DNA from: Escherichia phage vB_EcoP-101136BS1
Sequence record: MZ234024.1
Length of the DNA: 39,375 nucleotides
Direction: 5' to 3' (one strand)
Position numbers and translations under genes: made by a program. Below, in pieces: positions 1 to 31,703 of this stretch (position 1 is the stretch's first letter; each line of letters starts with the position of its first letter). The notes beneath the pieces were generated by a model, which had not been told where the DNA came from, searched no databases, and worked only from the letters and a program-made list of their open reading frames with translations.

Positions 1-3000
1 ATGCAGGAACGAGAGGATCGCTCTACGTGGTTCGGTTTCGGCTCGGCTACAGAAGCTGAAGTGAAGAACTCTATGGTCGGCGTGGCTATCCGCGCTGGTC
101 AGACCGAGGACTCACTGGATGTCATTGGCGATGTGTTCAACCCAACCCGATGGAATAACCATAAGTGGTCTCGTGAGGAGCTGGACCAGATTCGTAACGC
201 TGGGGTTCTGCCTCAGTATTACGGAGTCATCACTGGTGGTTCCCCTCAGAACCTGACTGAGCTGATTAACTTGGCGCTTGAGAACCAGAAGTTGGACCAA
301 GAGAAGGCCAAGGCCGGGACTGGTGCTCAACTGGCGGCTGGTGTGATTGGTGCTGGCGTGGACCCTCTGACCTACGTTCCTATTGCTGGGCAGGTAGGTA
401 AAGGTGGGAAGCTAGTCAACAAGATGTTCACTGTGGCTGCTCAGTCTGGTGCTCTGGCTGGGGCATCCGAGATTGCTCGAACCTCAGTTGCTGGTGGGGA
501 CGCTCATGTGGCTGAGGCAATTATGGGCGGTGCTCTCTTCGGTGGGGGAATGACAGCTATCGGGGACGCTATCGGCAAGGCCTTAGGCAAGTCAACCAAC
601 GAGTTCGCCGGACCAGCCACACGTCTGGAAGCCCGTGAGACTGCACGTAATGTTGATGGTCAGGACCTGTCGCGTATGCCAATCCGTGAAGGAGAGGAGA
701 CCTTTAGTCATCAAGGTGTTAAGTTCGCAGACGTTCCGAACGAGCCGGGTAGTGTACGACTGGAAGATGGTTCAATCCTGATTGGTGAGAATCCTCTGAA
801 CCCTAAGACACGTAAAGTCTTTGACGAAGTGATTGAGCCTGAACGTGCCGCTGCTGGTGTGAACCTTGGTGGGCTGACTGAGATTGGCCTGAAGCTGCTT
901 CGGTCCGAGAACCCTGAGATTCGTGGAGTAGCTGCTGACTTAGTACGTTCACCGACTGGTATGCAGTCTGGGGCCTCAGGTAAAATAGGGACAACTGCGT
1001 CAGACGTATTCGAGAGACTTCGTGCTGTGGACCATCGGTTCTACAATGACATCGACGATGCGGTTACTGAGGCACTAAAGGACCCGTACTTCCAGACAGC
1101 ATTCTGGCGAGACTCTGGCGCATTCCGTCAAGACATCTATCAGCGCGTGTCTATGGCTATCGAAGATGGTAGCGGAAACCTGAAGGCTGAATTGACTCCG
1201 GGAGAACTGAAAGTCTATGACCTGCTGAAGAACCAGTTTGACGCCAAGCGTGAGATGATGGAGAACCCGGCGATGTTTGGTCGCCCAGACGCTCAGTCTA
1301 TCTTTCCGGGTAGCCGCTTCAAGGGAACATACGTCCCGCATGTGTATAGCAACCAGATGAAGGAGCTGTACATCAAGGAGCTTGGGAGTCCAGAGGCACT
1401 ACAGGAGGCCATCAAGAAGTCATGGTTGACCAGCTATGCGTCTCGACCTGAAGTCAAGAAACGTGTGGACGAGGCACTCTTAGAGGCTGACCCTACGTTG
1501 ACTCCAGAAGGACTTGCGGCTGCGGTCGATAAGTACGCCAACGATAAGGCTTATGGTATCTCTCACACCGAGCAGTTCGAGCGTTCATCCGTAATGGAAG
1601 AGAACATCAATGGTCTGGTGGGTCTGGAGAACAACAGCTTCCTTGAGGCTCGTAACCTGTTCGATAGCGATATGTCAATCGTCCTACCTAACGGTCAGAC
1701 CTTCAGTGTCAACAACCTGCGTGAGTGGGACATGGACAAGATTGTCCCGGCCTACAACCGTCGAGTTAATGGCGATATTGCTATCATGGCTGGTACAGGC
1801 AAGACCACGAAGGACATGAAGGACTTGGTTGAGACCCTGATGAACAAGGCTGGGGATGACGGTAAGTTGAAAGGTGAAGTATCTACATTACGTGACACTT
1901 TGAAGATTCTAACTGGTCGTGCTCGACGTGATGGTGCTGATGATGCGGCCTTCGCTACCGTGATGCGCACAATGACAGACCTATCGTTCTTCGCTAAGAA
2001 TGCCTACATGGGTGTTCAGAACTTAACGGAGATTGGTGGTATGCTGGCTCGTGGTAACGTTCGTGCAATGCTTCATGGAGTCCCAATTTTCCGTGACCTA
2101 GCCTTCCGTAACAAGAAGGTTGGGGCCTCAGAGATTAAGGACCTGCACAATGTTATCTTCGGTAAGGAACTGGATGACTCAATCCGTCCGTCTAAACAGG
2201 ATGTCATTGACCGTCTGCGATCTTACAGTGACCTCGGTCGTGGTACAGCTACAGCTCTGGGGACTGCCAAGTATTACACTGGCGAACTTGCAGTACGCTC
2301 TCCGTTCACTAAAGTCCTCAACGGTACGACCAACTACCTGTTAGATGCTGGACGTCAGGGCTTCCTGTCTGACATCGTGGAGCATAGCCTGACTGGTAGT
2401 AAGCGTAAGTTCGATGACCGCTGGCTGAAGACCGCTGGTATCTCTGACGAGCAGTGGAAGGGCATTAAGTCCCTAATCCGTGAGTCAGTGACTCGTGGTC
2501 CAGACGGGAAGTACACCATCAAGGATAAGAAGGCGTTCAGTCAGGACCCAAGGGCTATGGACCTCTGGCGTATGGGTGACACCATCGCTGATGAGACCCT
2601 GCTACGTCCCCACAAGCTGAGCAACATGGACGCCAAGGCTTATGGTCCGATAGCGAAGACTGTCTTGCAGTTTAAGAACTTCGTTATCAAGTCTATCAAC
2701 GGTCGAACCATGCGTACCTTCTACAATGCCACCAAGAACAACCGAGCTATGGACGCTGCGCTGTCAACGGTTATGTCTATGGGTCTGGCTGGAATGTACT
2801 ACATGGCTCAGGCGCACATAAAGGCTTACGCTATGCAGGACGGTCGTGACCGAGAGTATCTGAAGCAAGCCCTTAACCCAACAATGATTGGCTATGCGGC
2901 GCTGTCCCGTAGCTCCCACTTAGGTGGTCCTCTTGGGGTCGCCAACATTCTGGGTGGAATCGCTGGGTATGAGGACACTAAGATGCTCCGCTCGTCAATC

Positions 3001-3303
3001 CTTCCGCGCTCACCTACCGAGAAGACGGAGAAGCCAATCGCCTTTGGTGCTGCTTCCAGTGGTCCGGTAATGAATGTGGTCGGCAACTTCCTTGAGCAGG
3101 TCCCGGCTTTCGGCTATGCTGCTAACGTTGGTGCTACGGCTTACAACTTGGCGGGATACCTCAAGGCGGATACCCGTGTCAACGAGCGAGACTACATGAC
3201 CGGGATGTATAACACGTTCCGTGAACTTGTACCGAATGACCCGATTACCCAGAAGTTGCTGCTTGGAACGTTTGAGGAGCAGGGCATCCACATCAAGGAC
3301 TAA
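1..3303 (+). CDS. gp16: internal virion protein D (gp16), C-terminal 1100 codons; the 5' part of the same gene is at 38791..39375
   Basis: ORF is open from base 1 with no start. Translation shares long conserved blocks with T7 gp16 as recalled (LEARETARN, RSPTGMQSGASGK, RRVNGDIAIM, FFAKNAYMG, NGTTNYLLDA, DPRAMDLWR, ELVPNDP). Frame is continuous with the ORF running off the window end. Confidence 0.9.
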   Translation: MQEREDRSTWFGFGSATEAEVKNSMVGVAIRAGQTEDSLDVIGDVFNPTRWNNHKWSREELDQIRNAGVLPQYYGVITGGSPQNLTELINLALENQKLDQEKAKAGTGAQLAAGVIGAGVDPLTYVPIAGQVGKGGKLVNKMFTVAAQSGALAGASEIARTSVAGGDAHVAEAIMGGALFGGGMTAIGDAIGKALGKSTNEFAGPATRLEARETARNVDGQDLSRMPIREGEETFSHQGVKFADVPNEPGSVRLEDGSILIGENPLNPKTRKVFDEVIEPERAAAGVNLGGLTEIGLKLLRSENPEIRGVAADLVRSPTGMQSGASGKIGTTASDVFERLRAVDHRFYNDIDDAVTEALKDPYFQTAFWRDSGAFRQDIYQRVSMAIEDGSGNLKAELTPGELKVYDLLKNQFDAKREMMENPAMFGRPDAQSIFPGSRFKGTYVPHVYSNQMKELYIKELGSPEALQEAIKKSWLTSYASRPEVKKRVDEALLEADPTLTPEGLAAAVDKYANDKAYGISHTEQFERSSVMEENINGLVGLENNSFLEARNLFDSDMSIVLPNGQTFSVNNLREWDMDKIVPAYNRRVNGDIAIMAGTGKTTKDMKDLVETLMNKAGDDGKLKGEVSTLRDTLKILTGRARRDGADDAAFATVMRTMTDLSFFAKNAYMGVQNLTEIGGMLARGNVRAMLHGVPIFRDLAFRNKKVGASEIKDLHNVIFGKELDDSIRPSKQDVIDRLRSYSDLGRGTATALGTAKYYTGELAVRSPFTKVLNGTTNYLLDAGRQGFLSDIVEHSLTGSKRKFDDRWLKTAGISDEQWKGIKSLIRESVTRGPDGKYTIKDKKAFSQDPRAMDLWRMGDTIADETLLRPHKLSNMDAKAYGPIAKTVLQFKNFVIKSINGRTMRTFYNATKNNRAMDAALSTVMSMGLAGMYYMAQAHIKAYAMQDGRDREYLKQALNPTMIGYAALSRSSHLGGPLGVANILGGIAGYEDTKMLRSSILPRSPTEKTEKPIAFGAASSGPVMNVVGNFLEQVPAFGYAANVGATAYNLAGYLKADTRVNERDYMTGMYNTFRELVPNDPITQKLLLGTFEEQGIHIKD

Positions 3304-3321
3304 ACTATCACTATAGGAAAC
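3299..3321 (+). promoter_or_regulatory. phage RNAP promoter (phi17 position), CTAAACTATCACTATAGGAAAC
   Basis: One of 11 copies of the same ~20-nt motif with a TATAGG initiation region, placed just upstream of the tailspike gene as phi17 is in T7. Confidence 0.8.
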
Positions 3322-3367
3322 TGGAGGCGCTACCATAGGTCTCCGTTTAAATCACAAAGGAGGCATA

Positions 3368-5548
3368 ATGTCCACGATTACACAATTCCCTTCAGGAAAC
3401 ACTCAGTACAGGATAGAGTTCGACTACCTAGCCAGAACGTTTGTTGTTGTTACGCTGGTGAATAGCTCTAACCCTACCCTGAACCGTGTACTGGAAGTTG
3501 GTCGAGATTACCGATTCCTTAATCCAACGATGATTGAGATGTTGGCTGACCAATCAGGTTTCGACATCGTTCGTATTCACCGTCAGACTGGAACTGACTT
3601 AGTGGTAGACTTCAGGAATGGCTCAGTGTTGACAGCTAGTGACCTGACCAATTCAGAGCTTCAGGCTATCCATATTGCAGAAGAAGGTCGAGACCAAACG
3701 GTTGACTTAGCTAAGGAATATGCCGATGCTGCTGGTAGCTCTGCTGGCAACGCTAAGGATAGCGAGGACGAAGCACGCCGAATCGCTGCGAGTATCAAGG
3801 CAGCTGGTAAAATTGGCTATATTACCCGTCGCTCCTTCGAGAAAGGCTTCAACGTTACAACATGGAACGAGGTCCTGCTATGGGAAGAGGATGGTGATTA
3901 TTACCGCTGGGATGGTACGCTTCCAAAGAACGTTCCCGCTGGTTCAACTCCTGAATCATCTGGTGGTATTGGGCTGAGTGCGTGGGTTAGTGTTGGTGAT
4001 GCGTCACTTAGAGCAAACCTGGCTGATAGTGATGGCGCTAAATACATAGGCAGTGGAGAAAGGACATTACTTGAGCACAACAATGATGTTTTGCACTCAA
4101 AAGACTTTCCAACACTGCAGGCAGCTATAGATGCATCTTTGCAAAAAAATGATCTACTGGTGTCTCCTGGCAATTATACTGAAAAAGTTACTATTGGAAA
4201 CGCGCAGTTAAAAGGTGTTGGCGGGGCCACGGTACTAAAAACTCCGGCAGACTTTACAAACACTGTTCAGGTTAATTTAGCTACACCTCATTGGCAATTC
4301 CGCCATAGTGGTGGTTTTGCTATAGATGGTTCCGGGACAACCGGGGCCGTAGGTATTAGTTTTGACCCGTCAGACCAATATTCCGGACGTCATAATTTTA
4401 GTGATGTATACATCCACAACATCAACAAGGCCATTCAGAAGCCTTCCGGGAACATCGGCAATACTTGGAGAAATATTGGGATATCTACGTGTGATTGGGG
4501 GTATTACGCGATTAGTGGCTCAGAGATGCATTGCGGGGCCGATACCCTCTACAATATCCACTTCGATGGCATCTCCACCTATGCAGTCTATCTAGACGGC
4601 ACTGTCGATAATGGCGGGGGGGGCGCATGGTGGCTTAAAGACTCCATTATTGAGGCTTCCGGAGGTGGCGGGATATACTTAAAAAGTAAATCGGGCGACT
4701 GTCCTACATCTCCATGCGGGGTATCCAATATATGGATGGAAGCGATCGCAACATCACCGGCTGTTCAGGTAGACGGCGTGGCGCAAAAACCGCGAGTTCT
4801 CAAGTTGGTAGACACAGCGATATTCTTTGCTGAGTATTCTTATCTCAACAACATCGAGCTATCCAACTCCAACTTAGTAACTTATGGTTGCCGTTTTGAC
4901 AACGCTGATGGCAATCAGGATATTGTCGTGGATGCACAAAGTACCATTGTAGCCCATGACGTGTATTTAAACGGCAGTTCTGGAAAGGACGTTATTGTGG
5001 AGTCCGTAGCATCGCAATCTGCAACGATAGCTGCCACAAACTTATCTCTGAGGGGCAACTTAACAAGAGGGAGAGTATTTAATACGCCGACAGGGAATAA
5101 ATTAATGGCTATCACATTTGACTCAGGTAGCCATAATTTTTCTGGCAGCGGCACCGTTAACGGTTCGACTGTATCTGACGGACTTCACGCCGCTACATGT
5201 ACCGAATTTTCATTCCCCGGAGCCGGTTTATATGAAATGATAGCGACAAGAACAACCATTACATCCGGTAGATGGTACGTGTGGGGAGTTAACTCACGCC
5301 TACAATCTGGCTCGGCGGATATTAGTATAACGTTAGGTATTACCATGGGTAGTGTTTACACAAAGCCGGGGGAGTGGATTAGCACTTTCGGTGTAGGAAA
5401 GGCATCTACCACTGGCACTGTAGCGCTATACGTTTCCACAGGAGGAGGTTCGGGAGCTACGGTCAGATTCAGTGACTTTTTCATCGCTGAGTTTACGACG
5501 CAAGCTCAGGCTTTAGCTTTCGCCAATTCAAGGATGTCGTTATCATAA
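3368..5548 (+). CDS. gp17: tail fiber/tailspike (gp17) with T7-like N-terminal anchor and a long non-T7 C-terminal domain, possibly a beta-helix polysaccharide depolymerase
   Basis: Strong RBS AAAGGAGG upstream. N-terminal ~150 aa resemble the T7 gp17 adaptor region (EFDYLARTFVVVTL, LVDFRNGSVL). Remainder is Gly/Asn/Ser/Thr-rich with no T7 fiber similarity. Confidence 0.85.
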   Translation: MSTITQFPSGNTQYRIEFDYLARTFVVVTLVNSSNPTLNRVLEVGRDYRFLNPTMIEMLADQSGFDIVRIHRQTGTDLVVDFRNGSVLTASDLTNSELQAIHIAEEGRDQTVDLAKEYADAAGSSAGNAKDSEDEARRIAASIKAAGKIGYITRRSFEKGFNVTTWNEVLLWEEDGDYYRWDGTLPKNVPAGSTPESSGGIGLSAWVSVGDASLRANLADSDGAKYIGSGERTLLEHNNDVLHSKDFPTLQAAIDASLQKNDLLVSPGNYTEKVTIGNAQLKGVGGATVLKTPADFTNTVQVNLATPHWQFRHSGGFAIDGSGTTGAVGISFDPSDQYSGRHNFSDVYIHNINKAIQKPSGNIGNTWRNIGISTCDWGYYAISGSEMHCGADTLYNIHFDGISTYAVYLDGTVDNGGGGAWWLKDSIIEASGGGGIYLKSKSGDCPTSPCGVSNIWMEAIATSPAVQVDGVAQKPRVLKLVDTAIFFAEYSYLNNIELSNSNLVTYGCRFDNADGNQDIVVDAQSTIVAHDVYLNGSSGKDVIVESVASQSATIAATNLSLRGNLTRGRVFNTPTGNKLMAITFDSGSHNFSGSGTVNGSTVSDGLHAATCTEFSFPGAGLYEMIATRTTITSGRWYVWGVNSRLQSGSADISITLGITMGSVYTKPGEWISTFGVGKASTTGTVALYVSTGGGSGATVRFSDFFIAEFTTQAQALAFANSRMSLS

Positions 5549-5692
5549 AAACAACCTCAGCCGAATCGGGTTATTTATCATCAGAACGGTATTGAATCAT
5601 CGAAGGTTGTGGAGGTAGAGGCTAACTACACGTTGACCAACGTATGATAACAACTTTGGGTCACGGACGACCCGCTTTAAACTGGAGGTTTT

Positions 5693-6160: not shown

Positions 6161-6205
6161 TAGACTCAAGGTCATTACTGTGTGTAGTGGCCTTTATGGT
6201 TAACA
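6161..6205 (+). promoter_or_regulatory. conserved intergenic element GACTCAAGGTCAT...GTGGCCTTTATGGTTA, candidate RNase III site (T7 R18.5 position)
   Basis: Same motif recurs at 15320-15362 and 22385-22430, and in part at 11997-12012. AAGGTC and GGCCTT can pair with one G-U wobble. Confidence 0.45.
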
Positions 6206-8561: not shown

Positions 8562-8584
8562 ACTTAACTATCACTATAGGGAAG
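8562..8584 (+). promoter_or_regulatory. phage RNAP promoter near the genome right end (phiOR position), TTAACTATCACTATAGGGAAG
   Basis: Matches the window's promoter consensus including a GGG start. Confidence 0.75.
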
Positions 8585-9084: not shown

Positions 9085-9126
9085 GACCTACGGTCCTTGA
9101 CCTACAGTGGCTGTGGCCTACAGTAG
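9085..9126. repeat. short direct repeats of (G)ACCTAC(A/G)GT, 3 copies
   Basis: GACCTACGGTC, GACCTACAGTG and GCCTACAGTAG within 42 nt; analogous to the CCTAAAG-type arrays at T7 genome ends. Confidence 0.5.
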
Positions 9127-9163
9127 TGACGATGAGTTTTGGACCAAAAGTTTGAGACCACAT

Positions 9164-9346
9164 CTCACACTTCAAGAACCTCAAGTCTCCCCATAGGCCC
9201 TCTTTAAGTCCAGACCAAAGGCCCTACCCCAGTCTATCATAAGGTTAGACCGATGGTCCAGACTTCAGGTCAACGATAGGTCTAGGCTATGGCTTAGGGA
9301 AGGACGATAGGTTGGGACTATGGGTCTTCTTTGAGTCTCTATCTGT
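9164..9346. repeat. candidate terminal-repeat region with the genome left end near TCTCACA (9164)
   Basis: TCTCACA followed ~29 nt later by CCCCATAGG, and ending near CTATCTGT, mirrors landmarks of the T7 160-bp terminal repeat as recalled. Boundaries cannot be fixed from a collapsed assembly. Confidence 0.3.
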
Positions 9347-9480
9347 ATAACCATAAGTCACAACCATAGGTCACAGCCTACCTCTCACAACCATAAGTCA
9401 TAACCTACAGTCTCACTAACCTACAGTCTCAACCATAAGACACCAACACCTACAGTCATAGACCTACAGTTAATAGACAC
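9335..9480. repeat. array of short direct repeats (ACCTACAGTC x4, ACCATAAG(T/A)C x3) in the left-end non-coding region
   Basis: Repeats read directly at 9403, 9417, 9447 and 9461, and 9351, 9379 and 9431. Confidence 0.6.
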
Positions 9481-9580
9481 AGGCTATAGACTTAAGGTCT
9501 AAGACATGTTAGTCAAAGACTATATCCTCTTACACCATGGGGCCGACGATAGCTTAATCAATATTATTTCAAATTACCTA

Positions 9581-9610
9581 TTGACTATAGGTCCAGACTA
9601 TGGCCTAATA
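9581..9610 (+). promoter_or_regulatory. candidate host sigma70 early promoter (T7 A1 position)
   Basis: TTGACT at 9581-9586 as in the T7 A1 -35; the -10 is weak (CCTAAT at 17-nt spacing). Downstream ACACGACACGG...AACCGGATA aligns with sequence after T7 A1. Confidence 0.4.
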
Positions 9611-9720
9611 GCTTCCGTCAACACGACACGGCAACAACCGGATAGTGAAGACGCCGGTCCGGTCCGGTTAAGTAGTCAGCCTGTAAGACATACGAACAAC
9701 AGGCAACCGACAGAAAGTAG

Positions 9721-9750
9721 TTGACAGGCAGTAACGACTTAAAGTAATAT
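9721..9750 (+). promoter_or_regulatory. candidate host sigma70 early promoter (T7 A3-like): TTGACA, 18 nt, TAATAT
   Basis: Consensus -35 and near-consensus -10, followed by GTACCACATCGAAAC, which matches the T7 A3 transcribed region. Confidence 0.65.
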
Positions 9751-9804
9751 GTACCACATCGAAACAACGGTGATGACCAACACTGAATGGTCTACCTGAA
9801 GTCC

Positions 9805-9850
9805 TCTGACTGAAGGGAATGCTCTTTAACAATCTGGATAAACTCTTAAT
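9805..9850 (+). promoter_or_regulatory. leader segment matching the T7 R0.3 RNase III site region (GCTCTTTAACAATCTGG)
   Basis: 17-nt identity with the T7 early leader sequence as recalled. Confidence 0.45.
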
Positions 9851-9863
9851 GTGCGCCGATAGC

Positions 9864-9920
9864 GACTAACTACAGGGCCTTTGAGTCTACATCTGAAGGC
9901 CCTGACTGATAGTCACTAAC
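9864..9920 (+). repeat. repeated structured element, copy 1 (ACTAACTACAGG ... GGCCCTGACTGATAGTCACTAAC); candidate RNase III site
   Basis: Contains hairpin AGGGCC-N18-GGCCCT. The 22-nt core recurs at 10216-10237 and 10944-10965, each ~30-45 nt upstream of an early start codon. Confidence 0.5.
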
Positions 9921-9936
9921 TTAAAGGATGGACACT

Positions 9937-10182
9937 ATGAAACACTTAAGCACAATCACTAATCGCAATGAAGTATTCGTGAACACTAAAGGTTATGCGT
10001 GGATTCAGCTTAAAGAGATGACAGGAGCGCGTCACCGTGTGGTAGTGCGCAAGGTATCAAGCAAGCAGTTCAGCAACTACAGCGTCGATACTGTGCGTAT
10101 AGACAACGAGACATACCTGATAGACTCGCAGATAACCGTGAGTCCTACAGTGGGCGTCTCAGCTCCTTATTTCGCTAACTGA
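9937..10182 (+). CDS. hypothetical early protein, 81 aa (first cistron after the host promoters)
   Basis: ORF-track frame 9928..10182; the second ATG at 9937 has better RBS spacing (AAAGGA, 8 nt). No similarity recognised. Confidence 0.55.
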   Translation: MKHLSTITNRNEVFVNTKGYAWIQLKEMTGARHRVVVRKVSSKQFSNYSVDTVRIDNETYLIDSQITVSPTVGVSAPYFAN

Positions 10183-10184
10183 GA

Positions 10185-10240
10185 GTGATTAACTACAGGT
10201 CGTTAGACTGATAGCGGCCTGACTGATAGTCACTAACACA
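10185..10240 (+). repeat. repeated structured element, copy 2; candidate RNase III site
   Basis: TTAACTACAGG can pair with CCTG(ACUGA)UAGU as an 8-bp stem with a bulge; core GGCCTGACTGATAGTCACTAAC. Confidence 0.5.
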
Positions 10241-10265
10241 TAATTAACTTTGAGAGGATATAACT

Positions 10266-10772
10266 ATGGAACGTAATGCTAACGCATACTATGAGCTGCT
10301 GGCTGCAACCGTTGAGGCATTTATCGAGCGTATTCAGTACGACCACCTGACTCAAGATGACGACTACAGCGATGCGCTGCATGAGGTCGTAGACGGTCAG
10401 GTTCCTCACTATTACCACGAGATTTTTACGGTGATGGCTGCTGATGGTATAGACAACGAGTTCGAAGACTCTGGGATGATACCTGAAACCAAGGACGTAA
10501 CGCGTATCCTACAAGCTCGCATCTATGAGGCACTTTATAACGACGTGTCTAATAGCTTGGATGTAGTCTGGTTTGAGGATGAAGAGGCAGACGAAGAGGA
10601 TGAATATTGGGTAGTTGACGCTAAAACAGGCGCAATAATTGTGCAAGCTGTAGCTCTTGAGGTCGCTACTGCATGTGCCAAGGTTAACTATGCGGCAGGT
10701 CGCCACCTGAAGGTGGAAGACACCAATGATAACGTAGTGTTCGACCCTGCGGCTGAGGACTGCGAGCGATGA
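10266..10772 (+). CDS. ocr: Ocr-like anti-restriction DNA-mimic protein (gene 0.3) with a ~50-aa C-terminal extension
   Basis: [45 protein letters not shown] is near-identical to T7 Ocr as recalled. T7 Ocr is 117 aa; this ORF is 168 aa, continuing past the acidic tail. Confidence 0.85.
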
Positions 10773-10914
10773 TAACTTACGGTTTATGCCAGCACCACGT
10801 CACCAACGCCCGGCTTATGGTCAAGACCGGGCAGTTAGACCACGATTGGGCTATGCGTCTCTTGAAAGTGGTCTACAGGAGACGCAAGCGTATACACGAC
10901 AGTTTACACGCTAA

Positions 10915-10968
10915 GTGACAGACTACAGGTCATCAATGCTGGTGGCCTGACTGATAGTCATTAACAAC
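10915..10968 (+). repeat. repeated structured element, copy 3; candidate RNase III site
   Basis: AGACTACAGG ... GGCCTGACTGATAGTCATTAAC upstream of the 10982 start. Confidence 0.5.
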
Positions 10969-10981
10969 TGAGAGGGAAGAT

Positions 10982-11209
10982 ATGAACACAATCACTGGTG
11001 CCATAACCAAAGGTTTTCGAGCAATTTTCGGTGAAACGCAAGAAGTATGCACCAATCATAAATTCGTACTTTCTTGCGTAGCAGGTGACGAGTTTGACGG
11101 GTTCGATAAACTGGTGGTTTGCGACCATTGCGGACAAGAGGCTATCCAACACTCAAACGGTAAATTTGAATTAATAGACGATAGCCTTACAGAAGGAGAC
11201 GGCGAGTAA
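10982..11209 (+). CDS. hypothetical early protein, 75 aa, Cys-containing and acidic
   Basis: RBS GAGGGA; contains VCTNH and VVCDHCGQE, a possible small metal-binding fold. No homolog recognised. Confidence 0.55.
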   Translation: MNTITGAITKGFRAIFGETQEVCTNHKFVLSCVAGDEFDGFDKLVVCDHCGQEAIQHSNGKFELIDDSLTEGDGE

Positions 11210-11341
11210 CCTAAATAAACAGGAGAGAACCAAATCATAGCTTGACCATAACACTGACGTGATGGTACTGAGTGATAGACGAGAGGTCATCGACTGATAG
11301 GTGGCCTCAAAGATTACCACTTACATTGATAGGAGTTAACT

Positions 11342-11446
11342 ATGAGCACTGCAATCATCTGGACTATCTCAGGCTTCGTAGCGTGGGGAATGTTTACTCT
11401 AGTCTGCAAACTACCGGTCCTTACTCAACTGTTATGGGGCTTATGA
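11342..11446 (+). CDS. possible small hydrophobic peptide, 34 aa
   Basis: AGGAG RBS 6 nt upstream; MSTAIIWTISGFVAWGMFTLVCKLPVLTQLLWGL; stop overlaps the next ATG (ATGA). Too short to score. Confidence 0.3.
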   Translation: MSTAIIWTISGFVAWGMFTLVCKLPVLTQLLWGL

Positions 11447-11646
11447 CTATGAGTATCGCACTATTGATAGCCATAGGCTATGGACTTATCGCCTACGTGC
11501 TGGTGAGAGACATCAACAAAGCGCGTAAAGTCTACAAATTCAACTATGTACGTCTGGGTAGCTGGACTGTACGTCAACCTAACGGACGATTCATGCGTAA
11601 CTTAGCGAACGTCTGGGATATAGCAACACTTGGGAGCAAACTGTAA
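11443..11646 (+). CDS. hypothetical early membrane protein, 67 aa
   Basis: In-frame part of ORF 11272..11646. The 11272 start lies inside a repeated structured element, so the ATG at 11443 is preferred. One predicted transmembrane segment. Confidence 0.45.
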   Translation: MTMSIALLIAIGYGLIAYVLVRDINKARKVYKFNYVRLGSWTVRQPNGRFMRNLANVWDIATLGSKL

Positions 11647-11972
11647 TGAACAAGTCATACGGGATTAATCTGGTACACTCTATGGACGCAGACATGCAAA
11701 TGTTAAGCCTACTGGCTACCGGGTATCGTCACGGAACGTCAAGTCACTCCGCACGTCAACAGCAGGAGCGGGACCGGGTACTGCAAGCAAGACTCCGGGC
11801 TGAGGGCCATAAGTCCGAACTAATGTGTCTGGCGTATGGTGGACGACCAATCACTGACGATGGTAAACTTTTAGTCTCAGGCTGGAAGGCGATAGACCAA
11901 CGGTCAACCATCAAGCACACGACTCATGGTGACTTCAGTCATCTCCACGCTAACCCGCTGATATGCAAGTAA
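11646..11972 (+). CDS. hypothetical early protein, 108 aa, in the slot where T7 carries gene 0.7
   Basis: ORF with ATG overlapping the upstream stop. No kinase motifs and too short for a gp0.7 kinase. Confidence 0.5.
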   Translation: MNKSYGINLVHSMDADMQMLSLLATGYRHGTSSHSARQQQERDRVLQARLRAEGHKSELMCLAYGGRPITDDGKLLVSGWKAIDQRSTIKHTTHGDFSHLHANPLICK

Positions 11973-11978
11973 TTCTGA

Positions 11979-12001
11979 CTTAACTATCACTATAGGACTC
12001 A
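11979..12001 (+). promoter_or_regulatory. phage RNAP promoter immediately upstream of the RNAP gene (TTAACTATCACTATAGGACTC)
   Basis: Matches the window consensus with a GGA start, ~75 nt upstream of the gene 1 ATG. Confidence 0.7.
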
Positions 12002-12069
12002 AGGTCTAAGACTCCAAGTGAAAGACCAAAGAGACTTTAAGTGAAAGACTAATAACAAGGACTTTAAGT

Positions 12070-14751
12070 ATGAGCGTCATCTCTATTGACAAGCACGACT
12101 TCTCTGATGTGTCGAACGCCATTGAGCCGTTTAACCTACTGGCTGACCACTACGGGCAAGACCTTGCAGTCAAACAGCTTCAGCTTGAGCACGAGGCATA
12201 CACTGAAGGCGAGCGACGTTTCATCAAGAACCTTGAGAGACAGACTGAGCGAGGGGAACTGGCAGACAATCAGGTCGCCAAGCCTTTGATGCAGACTCTA
12301 GTCCCTAAGATTGCGCAAGCCGTCAAGGAGTGGCATGAAGGTCCAGACGGGAAGCTGTCAACCTCTCGTCCGAGCGTAGCGTTCACCATGTTGAGCACTG
12401 AAGAGAAGGCCGTAAAGGTCCGCTCTTTGCGCATCTCCTGCGAGTCTGCTGCGGTTATCATACTGAAGGTCATACTCTCCAAGCTGGTCAAGCCTGAAGG
12501 GATACCGATTACACCGATGGCCTCAGCGATAGGTCGCACACTTGAGGACGAAATCCGCTTCGGTCGCATCCGTGACAAGGAGAAAGAGCACTTCAAGAAG
12601 GCGATAGCTGATAACCTGAATAAGCGGGCCGGGGCGTCCTACAAGAAAGCCTACATGCAAGCGGTCGAGGCATCCATGCTGGAGCAAGGCCAACTGGAAG
12701 ATGCGTGGGGGACTTGGAGTCCGACCGAGGCTGTCCACGTTGGAATCAAGATGCTGGAGATTGTCATCCAGTCCACACAACTGGTCGAGCTTAAGCGTTA
12801 CGGTGCTGGCAATGCAGCGGCTGACGTTGAGATGGTCCACCTGTCAGACTTCTGGGTCAAGAAGATGGCACAACGAGGATTCAGCCTTGCGGGTATAGCT
12901 CCAGTCTACCAGCCTTGCGTCGTTCCACCTAAGCCGTGGACTGGTGTCGTAGGCGGTGGGTACTGGGCCAAAGGACGCAGACCATTACCACTGATTCGCT
13001 TAGGGTCTAAGTCTGCGGTAGCACGCTACGAAGACGTGTATATGCCTGAAGTCTATGACGCTGTGAACATCATTCAGAATACACCTTGGAAAGTGAACAA
13101 GAAGGTTCTGGAAGTGGTGAACATGGTCGAGAAGCTGAACAACACGCCTATTGATGACATCCCTCAGATGGAACCGCTGAAGCCTGAGGACTATGCGGGT
13201 GAGACTGAAGAAGAACTCAAGGCATGGAAGAAGGCTGCTGCTGGTATCTATCGCCGCGAGAAGGCCAGACAGTCACGAAGATTGTCACTGAGCTTTATCG
13301 TCAACCAAGCGAACAAGTTCTCTCAGTTCAAGGCCATCTGGTTCCCGTATAACATGGACTGGCGCGGTCGCGTCTACGCTGTGCCGATGTTCAACCCTCA
13401 GGGTAACGACATGCAAAAGGGTCTTCTGACTCTGGCAGTCGGTAAGCCTATTGGTGCTGATGGTTTCAAATGGCTGAAGGTCCACGGTGCAAACTGCGCG
13501 GGTGTCGATAAAGTCACCTTCGAGGAGCGTATCAAGTGGGTGGAAGATAACCACGACAACATCATGGCTGCTGCCAAGGCACCGATGGATAGCATTGAGT
13601 GGTGGGGCAAGTTAGACTCTCCGTTCTGCTTCCTAGCGTTCTGCTTCGAGTATGCTGGCGCAATGCACCACGGCTTGTCTTACTCCTGCTCGCTGCCGAT
13701 AGCGTTCGATGGGTCCTGCTCTGGGATTCAGCACTTCAGCGCTATGCTTCGCGACCACATCGGTGGACATGCAGTAAACCTGACGCCATCCGGTAAGGTC
13801 CAAGACATCTACCGCATCGTGTCTGACCGCATTGAGGAGGAGCTTAAAGTCCTACTGGTTAACGGTACGGACAACGAGATGGTAACTCACGAGGACAAGA
13901 AAACTGGTGAGATTACCGAGCGTCTCAAGCTGGGGACACGAGAGCTTGCCCGTCAGTGGCTGACCTACGGTATGTCACGAAAGGTCACTAAGCGTTCGGT
14001 CATGACTCTGGCCTACGGGTCGAAAGAGTACGGCTTCGCAGACCAAGTTTACGAGGACATCGTGATGCCAGCGATTGACTCAGGGTCTGGCGCTATGTTC
14101 ACTGAACCAAGCCAAGCATCTCGCTTCATGGCTAAGATGATTTGGGAAGCTGTGAGTGTGACCGTAGTTGCTGCGGTTGACGCGATGAAATGGCTTCAGG
14201 GTGCTGCCAAGCTGCTTGCTGCTGAAGTGAAGGACAAGAAGACTGGAGAAATCCTGAAGCCTTGTCTTCCGGTACACTGGGTCACACCTGATGGTTTCCC
14301 TGTCTGGCAGGAATACCGCAAGAAGGACACCACTCGTCTGAACCTGATGTTCTTAGGGTCATTCAACCTTCAGCCTACCGTCAACAAAGGCACGAAGAAA
14401 GAGCTGGACAAGCACAAGCAGGAGTCAGGCATTAGCCCGAACTTCGTCCACTCACAAGATGGTAGCCACCTGCGGAAGACTGTAGTCCACACTCACCGCA
14501 AGTATGGCGTGATGTCATTCGCAGTGATTCACGATAGCTTCGGGACCATCCCTGCTGACGCTGAGTATCTGTTCCGTGGTGTCCGTGAGACGATGGTCGA
14601 GACATACCGCGATAACGATGTGCTGCTTGACTTCTACGAGCAGTTTGAATACCAGCTTCATGAAAGCCAGCGCGACAAGTTGCCTGAGCTTCCGAAGAAA
14701 GGTAAACTGAATATCGAAGACATCTTGTCTTCAGACTTTGCATTCGCTTAA
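12070..14751 (+). CDS. gp1: single-subunit DNA-directed RNA polymerase (gene 1)
   Basis: 893 aa (T7 RNAP is 883); conserved C-terminus ...HDSFGTIPADA...DFAFA and specificity-loop region TRLNLMFLGSFNLQPT (T7: TRLNLMFLGQFRLQPT). Confidence 0.97.
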   Translation: MSVISIDKHDFSDVSNAIEPFNLLADHYGQDLAVKQLQLEHEAYTEGERRFIKNLERQTERGELADNQVAKPLMQTLVPKIAQAVKEWHEGPDGKLSTSRPSVAFTMLSTEEKAVKVRSLRISCESAAVIILKVILSKLVKPEGIPITPMASAIGRTLEDEIRFGRIRDKEKEHFKKAIADNLNKRAGASYKKAYMQAVEASMLEQGQLEDAWGTWSPTEAVHVGIKMLEIVIQSTQLVELKRYGAGNAAADVEMVHLSDFWVKKMAQRGFSLAGIAPVYQPCVVPPKPWTGVVGGGYWAKGRRPLPLIRLGSKSAVARYEDVYMPEVYDAVNIIQNTPWKVNKKVLEVVNMVEKLNNTPIDDIPQMEPLKPEDYAGETEEELKAWKKAAAGIYRREKARQSRRLSLSFIVNQANKFSQFKAIWFPYNMDWRGRVYAVPMFNPQGNDMQKGLLTLAVGKPIGADGFKWLKVHGANCAGVDKVTFEERIKWVEDNHDNIMAAAKAPMDSIEWWGKLDSPFCFLAFCFEYAGAMHHGLSYSCSLPIAFDGSCSGIQHFSAMLRDHIGGHAVNLTPSGKVQDIYRIVSDRIEEELKVLLVNGTDNEMVTHEDKKTGEITERLKLGTRELARQWLTYGMSRKVTKRSVMTLAYGSKEYGFADQVYEDIVMPAIDSGSGAMFTEPSQASRFMAKMIWEAVSVTVVAAVDAMKWLQGAAKLLAAEVKDKKTGEILKPCLPVHWVTPDGFPVWQEYRKKDTTRLNLMFLGSFNLQPTVNKGTKKELDKHKQESGISPNFVHSQDGSHLRKTVVHTHRKYGVMSFAVIHDSFGTIPADAEYLFRGVRETMVETYRDNDVLLDFYEQFEYQLHESQRDKLPELPKKGKLNIEDILSSDFAFA

Positions 14752-15321: not shown

Positions 15322-15362
15322 GACTCAAGGTCATGACTCAAAGTCGTGGCCTTCATGATTAA
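15320..15362 (+). promoter_or_regulatory. conserved element AGACTCAAGGTCAT...GTGGCCTTCATGATTA, candidate RNase III site (R1.1 position)
   Basis: Second copy of the 6161 motif, directly downstream of a promoter. Confidence 0.45.
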
Positions 15363-15394
15363 CCCTAAATAAACACTACTGGAGATTTAACCGT

Positions 15395-17109: not shown

Positions 17110-17148
17110 AACCCAGTGGTCTTAGGACTGCTGGGTTTCTTTGCGTCT
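17110..17148 (+). terminator. candidate intrinsic terminator (T7 TE-like position)
   Basis: Hairpin CCCAGUGGUC-UUAG-GACUGCUGGG (10-bp stem with G-U pairs) followed by UUUCUUUGCG. Confidence 0.45.
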
Positions 17149-20210: not shown

Positions 20211-20426
20211 ATGATTAAACTTATCGAATTTCTTGGTCGTCTGGTGGTGCGTGGTTATCGTCGTGCTGCGGTACGGGAACGAAAGGTAGAAAAGAAGACT
20301 GCGGACGGTGCGGCTGATGCTGCTGCTCTGGCTGACAAGCTGACCATCGCGTCACTGGAAGCTGGCATGAAGGCGCGTCAGGCTGACACCAAAGCCGACC
20401 AGTTGTCTCAGTTCTTCAAAGCCTAA
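20211..20426 (+). CDS. hypothetical protein, 71 aa (T7 gene 3.8 position, but no HNH motifs)
   Basis: ORF with N-terminal hydrophobic segment and Ala/Lys-rich helix. Confidence 0.5.
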   Translation: MIKLIEFLGRLVVRGYRRAAVRERKVEKKTADGAADAAALADKLTIASLEAGMKARQADTKADQLSQFFKA

Positions 20427-20444
20427 ACTATCACCTTAGGGATG
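20422..20444 (+). promoter_or_regulatory. variant phage promoter (CCTAAACTATCACCTTAGGGATG)
   Basis: Upstream consensus intact, but the -4..-1 region is CTTA instead of TATA. Confidence 0.45.
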
Positions 20445-20491
20445 GGACCGTGAGTCCTGTCCCTCTGTTCGCATTTGTGATTAAGGAGTGA

Positions 20492-22371: not shown

Positions 22372-22384
22372 GTCTAGACTCAAG

Positions 22385-22430
22385 GTCATTCATAGCGAGT
22401 GGCCTTTATGATTAGACTAAAGCGGAGGAT
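22385..22430 (+). promoter_or_regulatory. conserved element TAGACTCAAGGTCAT...GTGGCCTTTATGATTA, candidate RNase III site upstream of the DNA polymerase gene
   Basis: Third copy of the 6161 motif. Confidence 0.45.
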
Positions 22431-31659: not shown

Positions 31660-31703
31660 TGAAACCCCTTGGGTGCCTTCGGGTGCTTGAGGGGTTTTTT
31701 TTG
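31660..31703 (+). terminator. intrinsic terminator (T7 T-phi-like)
   Basis: GAAACCCCTTGGGTGCC-TTCG-GGTGCTTGAGGGGTT followed by U8; resembles T7 T-phi (AACCCCTTGGGGCCTCTAAACGGGTCTTGAGGGGTTTTTTG). Confidence 0.85.

Follow-up and report, generated by a model that had tools for sequence, protein, structure and literature searches.

The intergenic stretch directly upstream of gene 1, the RNA polymerase (RNAP) gene of Escherichia phage vB_EcoP-101136BS1, raises the question of whether the phage polymerase transcribes its own gene. The window, i.e., the whole stretch of DNA that was analysed, is the record MZ234024.1 of 39,375 nt. It holds a whole Kayfunavirus genome in circular permutation, with 99% identity to LM33_P1, and a 4-kb query around the gene-1 promoter returned 97–99% matches in Kayfunavirus genomes (LM33_P1, HC13 and others). 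The physical left end lies near 9163 and begins with TCTCACAC; the terminal-repeat and concatemer-junction region follows (9163–9345), with a concatemer-junction-like ATCTGT near 9333. Gene 1 (12070–14751, + strand) encodes a single-subunit T7-type RNAP of 893 aa (Pfam RNA_pol, 6.7e-107, and RPOL_N), which is 62.6% identical to T7 gp1 over the full length. The gene is one intact ORF here, whereas the LM33_P1 record (LT594300) splits it into two CDS (2925–5606); the same record misnames an Ocr homologue (1121–1624; Pfam ocr, 7e-29) as ‘protein kinase’. The class II pause signal ATCTGTT occurred at chance frequency, with one copy within gene 1, at 14567.

The candidate promoter, phi1, occupies positions 11978–12000 of the + strand (−17 to +6, ACTTAACTATCACTATAGGACTC) and matches the 23-bp consensus of the phage itself. 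Within it, TTAACTATCACTATAGGA (11980–11997) is the sole zero-mismatch copy among ten matches found in the whole genome at up to 3 mismatches; all ten lie on the + strand, where 0.01 would be expected by chance. An alignment of the ten copies at their TATA|G start gave the consensus (A/C)CT(A/T)AACTATCACTATAGG(A/G). The +1 position was set at G11995 by analogy with T7 (TATA|G), which leaves 75 nt to the ATG of gene 1 at 12070. An earlier note on this DNA had placed a consensus phage promoter at about this distance from gene 1, and the exact match bears it out; the transcript start that it gave as ~11996 holds for the site and is one base off the predicted nucleotide. A position weight matrix spanning −20 to +8 assigned 35.7 bits to the gene-1 promoter, in the middle of the range of the ten (33–41 bits), and 29.6 bits in a leave-one-out calculation. 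All non-promoter sequences scored below 15 bits, aside from one weak site. We also observed an eleventh, weak promoter-like site of 24.5 bits at 20419–20446 (CCTAAACTATCACCTTAGGGA, +1 at 20439), just before the primase/helicase gene. The other nine sites precede genes 1.1, 1.6, 2.5, 6.5, 9, 10, 13, 17 and 19.5 (named by T7 homology), the last being phiOR-like with +1 at 8579. The gene-1 promoter is intergenic, between an ORF at 11646–11972 and gene 1, and is co-oriented with the genes. Its +3 to +6 bases are ACTC, unlike the GGGAGA start of the capsid-gene promoter, so that the gene-1 promoter may be a weak one.

Upstream of this site, a consensus scan located host sigma-70 promoters at the left end (9581–9750, + strand), i.e., TTGACT from 9581 and TTGACA-18-TAATAT at 9721–9750. 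They are homologous to the annotated host RNAP promoters 469–505 and 609–647 of EcoDS1. A scan of the + strand from 9100 to 12070 gave no terminator-like site. A TE-like host terminator hairpin (AACCCAGTGG...CTGCTGGGTTTCTTTG) is located at 17110–17145 of the same strand, after the ligase gene, placed as TE in EcoDS1 and T7, and would end the host-transcribed early unit; a Tphi-like terminator follows gene 10 (31661–31698). With host promoters upstream and no terminator-like site before gene 1, host polymerase must make the first gene-1 mRNA, as in T7. Since a cognate promoter is present and no terminator was found before gene 1, the phage RNAP can almost certainly transcribe its own gene as well. 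The arrangement is that of an autogene, with a cognate promoter ahead of the polymerase gene, a 75-nt unstructured leader and no terminator between them.

The promoter and its leader are strongly conserved. The 116-bp promoter–leader stretch was recovered from 218 phage records at a coverage of 80% or more; RNAPs at least 80% identical also come from 218 records, an agreement in number only. Among 17 K1F-type genomes, none of the 23 promoter columns varies, compared with 5 of 69 columns in the leader and 64 of 300 at the start of gene 1 (its first 300 nt). Across 80 IMG/VR loci, a promoter lies 75–102 nt before gene 1 in all phages whose RNAP is at least 79% identical, whereas all loci with a 58–63% identical RNAP (T7-, T3- and K11-like) have no promoter directly before the gene, and those of them that retain the left end all have a phiOL-type promoter. 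Moreover, the promoters fall into three classes, K1F (AACTATCACTATAGG), GW1-type (AAACCCTCACTATAGG) and CR8 (GGAAGGTACACTATAGG), and in each class the gene-1 promoter matches the other promoters of its own genome in the specificity region (−12 to −8). The residues at T7 positions 746/748/756/758 are RNNQ in the K1F-type polymerases (R/N/N/Q in this phage), RDRQ in the GW1-type and RKQR in CR8. A T7 RNAP with the K1F specificity loop gave a 17-fold drive of a predicted K1F-subfamily promoter in vivo (PMC3458549). This co-variation with polymerase specificity is the strongest of the four comparative lines that point to function: the promoter appears to have been rewritten twice together with the specificity of the polymerase, and it is not a relic. 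Judged from these sequence comparisons, the cognate phage promoter before gene 1 is almost certainly real.

The earlier note implied that a promoter at this position is unusual, which does not agree with the records of related phages: EcoDS1, CR44b, CR8, gh-1 and Pf-10 all carry annotations of this layout. The homologous site bears the name promoter ‘phi’ in the record of the Kayfunavirus EcoDS1 (NC_011042, 2244–2266) and is a ‘predicted promoter’ in that of Citrobacter phage CR44b, also a Kayfunavirus; in both, promoter and leader are nearly identical to those described here. We see no difference of substance from these two phages, and vB_EcoP-101136BS1 is another isolate of the genus. Citrobacter phage CR8 (Caroctavirus) has a ‘predicted promoter’ at the same position, with its own consensus and a homologous leader. 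For T7 gene 0.7, which encodes the kinase and host shut-off functions, a tblastn search over the whole genome of our phage found no homologue; CR8 has the gene-1 promoter, yet retains a 0.7-like gene. The promoter is unannotated in the LM33_P1 and K1F records, and the PE3-1 record mislabels the phage promoter as a host promoter.

A similar layout has been annotated in gh-1 and Pf-10. In Pseudomonas phage gh-1 (Ghunavirus) phi1, and in Pf-10 (Pifdecavirus) ‘phage specific promoter 02’, lie about 100–125 nt before the RNAP gene and downstream of host promoters; the gh-1-type promoter is conserved in six gh-1-like (Ghunavirus) loci. The promoter consensus of both differs from that of our phage, gene 1 is the first gene in gh-1, and Pf-10 retains a phiOL-like promoter, unlike vB_EcoP-101136BS1. 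Their leaders resemble ours little or not at all (z = 3.7 for Pf-10 and 0.8 for gh-1). In all gh-1-like loci examined, we also observed a conserved promoter-like AAAAACCCTCGCTATGGC inside the RNAP ORF, ~1844 nt past the gene 1 start. A survey of repeated 13-mers found no gene-1-proximal promoter in Vibrio phage 4141; under the strict criterion of this survey CR8 was missed, only because its locus had been cut at 7 kb. For SP6, a search of the initial 3.4 kb of NC_004831 that allowed as many as 3 mismatches found no promoter upstream of its own RNAP gene.

Positive feedback has itself been proposed before. In LUZ100, the phage-specific promoter phi1 stands immediately before the RNAP gene. Under the published model, the first polymerase comes from host read-through and then switches on transcription of its own gene, and a MarR-like repressor is proposed to gate the loop; the promoters came from ONT-cappable-seq (PMC10134795). 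LUZ100 is a distant T7 relative with temperate features, whereas our phage has no lysogeny module and its promoter was predicted from sequence. By the account of the engineered T7 genomes of Endy et al. (2000) given in PMC3737178, gene 1 placed behind a T7 promoter shows the logic of auto-amplification; those genomes are artificial, and the arrangement described here is natural and conserved. The gene-1-proximal promoter is consequently not new: it is a known, annotated and recurrent layout of the Studiervirinae. With the site annotated in earlier records and a feedback model in print for a relative, the promoter opens no new question.

We assign a probability of roughly 85% to the reading that 11978–12000 is a working promoter for the phage’s own T7-type RNAP, the first in the order of DNA entry, acting in the following sequence of events. 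Host RNA polymerase would start at the sigma-70 promoters (about 9581 and 9721) and read the early genes and gene 1 as far as TE (about 17110–17145), and this read-through would yield the first molecules of phage polymerase. The new polymerase would then initiate at G11995 and produce the 75-nt A-rich, unstructured leader with its AAGGA site, followed by gene 1; by analogy with T7, the transcript would run on into the middle genes. Gene 1 would in this way be both an early and a phage-transcribed gene, whose product amplifies its own mRNA, and this mRNA would still be made after gp2, which is present in this phage, shuts off the host polymerase. The gene-1 promoter would also be the earliest loading point from which the phage polymerase could pull in and transcribe the remaining genome.

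Self-transcription of gene 1, which the earlier note had proposed, is very likely: the cognate promoter and the lack of a terminator, the conservation, the co-variation and the annotation in relatives all agree. Initiation in vivo is predicted at G11995; we found no Kayfunavirus transcript 5′ ends or reporter data in the searched literature. A net positive-feedback loop in infection is plausible. T7 lysozyme inhibits T7 RNAP. The homologue of gp3.5 in our phage (19731–20183, + strand) is 69.5% identical to T7 gp3.5 over all 151 aa by tblastn and is, by analogy, a probable brake on the loop, which would also be limited by the class-II-like start (GGACTC, not GGGAGA); the role in genome entry is likewise proposed by analogy. 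We must also note that in engineered T7 with gene 1 behind a T7 promoter the fitness effects defied prediction (PMC3737178), so that ‘feedback’ need not mean faster growth. Selection could act on genome entry or replication and not on polymerase dosage.

The comparison with T7 bears on the first of these possibilities. The earlier note stated that the interval between genes 0.7 and 1 of T7 holds no phage promoter, which is correct, as the T7 record has only the E. coli C promoter there. Its further statement that T7 RNAP is made only from host promoters does not strictly hold: phiOL at nt 405 precedes all early genes, gene 1 included, and in principle offers the T7 polymerase a route to transcribing its own gene. 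The contrast with T7 was therefore overstated. In T7, phiOL lies about 2.8 kb before gene 1 and ahead of the host promoters, whereas the promoter of our phage adjoins the gene. T7, K11 and BA14 have no gene-1-proximal promoter and carry phiOL ahead of the early region. In our phage, the weight matrix gave no phiOL-like site above 4 bits from the left end (about 9163) up to 11978.

These observations allow a second reading, in which the promoter is functional and was selected as the first loading site of the polymerase, for internalisation and for the middle genes, in replacement of phiOL, with the additional gene-1 mRNA as a by-product. The distribution of the two promoters fits such an exchange, as phiOL is lacking in this lineage, whereas T7, K11, BA14 and the T7-, T3- and K11-like loci have it and are without the gene-1 promoter. 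The entry of the T7 genome is transcription-driven (PMC3737178; PMC11863960), and phiOL, though described as weakly used, is credited with directing RNAP-mediated entry (PMC6171733). Pf-10, however, carries both a phiOL-like and a gene-1 promoter, which means that the two are not simple alternatives, and the promoter just past gene 1 (15316) could serve entry just as well, with no transcription of gene 1 from it. We regard the replacement as possible but clearly less probable than a promoter that serves gene 1; the two are compatible and not exclusive.

Two promoter-like sequences were observed at or near phiOL positions. At 9484–9505, CTATA-GACTTAAGGTCTAAGAC is a 22/23 copy of positions −5 to +18 of the gene-1 promoter and leader. 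The terminal repeat lies on one side of it and the host promoters on the other, which is the position of phiOL in T7, K11 and BA14, so that it may be a relic of phiOL. The copy is also found in LM33_P1, CR44b and two IMG/VR loci, and is absent from K1F and EcoDS1. In K11, an unannotated K1F-type promoter-like sequence, GATCACTATCACTATAGGTCTAA (541–563), lies 57 nt downstream of phiOL; this type of sequence is conserved in about 30 K11-like loci, and the K11 polymerase has a different consensus.

The 5′ leader of gene 1 (12001–12069, + strand) is A-rich and unstructured and carries an AAGGA Shine-Dalgarno sequence at 12057–12061. At 36–37%, its GC content is the lowest of the neighbourhood. The motifs reported in it by the earlier note were confirmed: GACTCAAGGTC is found at 11996–12006, and AAGTGAAAGAC is present in exactly two copies, 23 nt apart (12016–12026 and 12039–12049, + strand). 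Degenerate versions of the latter (AAGTnnAAnGAC) recur in the leaders of IMM-002-type phages and of CR8. The leader folded no better than its shuffles (z of +0.49 and −0.37), and the same was true of the longer version made by host read-through. RNAalifold on eight diverged leaders gave a consensus of −2.46 kcal/mol with 5 bp and zero compensatory pairs.

The motif GACTCAAGGTC (+ strand) is the 5′-arm motif of the RNase III-type hairpins of this phage and is present here without a 3′ arm. The same 11-mer opens three hairpins (6163, 15322 and 22377), in which its pairing partner is GTGGCCTT(T/C)ATG(A/G)TTA; in sequence and placement the hairpins correspond to the T7 RNase III sites R18.5, R1.1 and R4.7, respectively, and T7 R1.1, checked directly, reads ACTCAAGGTCAT...GTGGCCTTTATGATTG. 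As a family, the hairpins (6163–6202, 15322–15361 and 22377–22414) have the 5′ arm GACTCAAGGTCAT and the 3′ arm GTGGCCTTTATGATTA, and a diverged copy is located in the early region (11277–11316). The bases at 11996–12006 agree with the 5′ arm GACUCAAGGUC(AU) through the exact 11-mer, followed by UA and not AU. The 3′ arm GUGGCCUUUAUGAUUA is not found in the gene-1 leader and occurs only at 6187, 15346 and 22399, with a diverged copy at 11301. The best hairpin of the leader has −10 kcal/mol with z = −0.37, as against −3.4 (15316), −4.0 (6150) and −1.6 (22360) for the complete copies, two of three of which are clearly better than their shuffles. Having the 5′ half only, and no stable or conserved fold, the leader is not a canonical RNase III site, and an equivalent of R1 was rejected. 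Eight of the ten GACTCAAGGTC copies with at most 1 mismatch on the + strand are intergenic. At up to 2 mismatches there are 55 copies against 24 ± 2.8 under a codon-shuffle null; for the exact copies this null carries no information, as it leaves intergenic DNA unshuffled, where four of the six lie.

The T7 primary origin consists of phi1.1A/B and an AT-rich region. The best match of our gene-1 leader in the whole T7 genome is the phi1.1B–gene 1.1 leader, with a score of 55 against 21.1 ± 5.4 and a next best of 43. The reverse search with this T7 leader returned the gene-1 leader at 57, the next being 49. The reciprocal match suggests a third reading, in which the promoter and its A/T-rich leader form a replication-origin cassette, the K1F-lineage counterpart of the T7 primary origin, with RNAP transcripts priming DNA synthesis. 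The locally lowest GC content of the leader is consistent with it, and so is the phi1.1B position of our phage, which holds only a decayed promoter and no long leader. This decayed phi1.1B-like sequence (15361–15385, CCTAAATAAACACTACTGGAGA) scored 6 bits against 33–41 and comes after the R1.1-like hairpin, an order shared with phi1.1B of T7. Its GGAGA now falls at the ribosome-binding-site position of gene 1.1 (ATG 15395). In T7, however, phi1.1B and its leader are downstream of gene 1, after the R1.1 hairpin, unlike the cassette considered here. Furthermore, other promoter-proximal leaders score only slightly lower, much of the score comes from GGACTTTAAGTATG, a 14-nt identical ribosome-binding stretch common to the gene-1 and T7 gene 1.1 leaders, and CTTTAAG-rich leaders also follow phiOL and phi6.5. 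With such margins the homology is suggestive only, and we consider an origin at this site doubtful. The kinship with the phi1.1B region, which would point to a moved cassette, is the only mildly new angle of the locus. If it were true, replication and phage-polymerase transcription would start upstream and not downstream of gene 1, the phi1.1B site (15361–15385) and the phiOL-like site (9484–9505) would be decayed leftovers of a rearrangement, and the site of the first phage promoter would be a control point that moves in the course of Studiervirinae evolution.

It is very improbable that the site is a host sigma-70 promoter comparable to the minor C promoter of T7. The PE3-1 record does call the homologous 23 bp a ‘host RNAP promoter’ (2874–2896), and in T7 the E. 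coli C promoter (3113) stands immediately ahead of gene 1. Nevertheless, our sequence is identical to the phage consensus and, in relatives, shifts with the specificity of the phage polymerase. The sigma-70 scan was empty at 11978–12000, and the hexamers located 16–18 nt before TATAGG (GTAATT, AGTAAT and AAGTAA) are unlike TTGACA; a sigma-70 promoter was rejected here. Least probable of all is a non-functional or decaying copy, there by chance or descent, for although decayed promoter-like copies do exist at 15361–15385 and 9484–9505, the gene-1 promoter has zero consensus mismatches, is invariant in 17 genomes while the adjacent coding sequence varies, and has changed together with polymerase specificity on two independent occasions.

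The phage promoter before gene 1, which we take to serve the polymerase encoded behind it, adds vB_EcoP-101136BS1 to a layout found in at least four genera (Kayfunavirus, Caroctavirus, Ghunavirus and Pifdecavirus), in which the polymerase gene lies directly behind its cognate promoter. The textbook arrangement of T7 is not the sole one in its subfamily. The layout is a natural counterpart of the ‘autogene’ circuit of synthetic biology, and it is relevant to models of infection timing, to the engineering of K1F-type therapeutic phages and to the use of K1F-type polymerase–promoter pairs.
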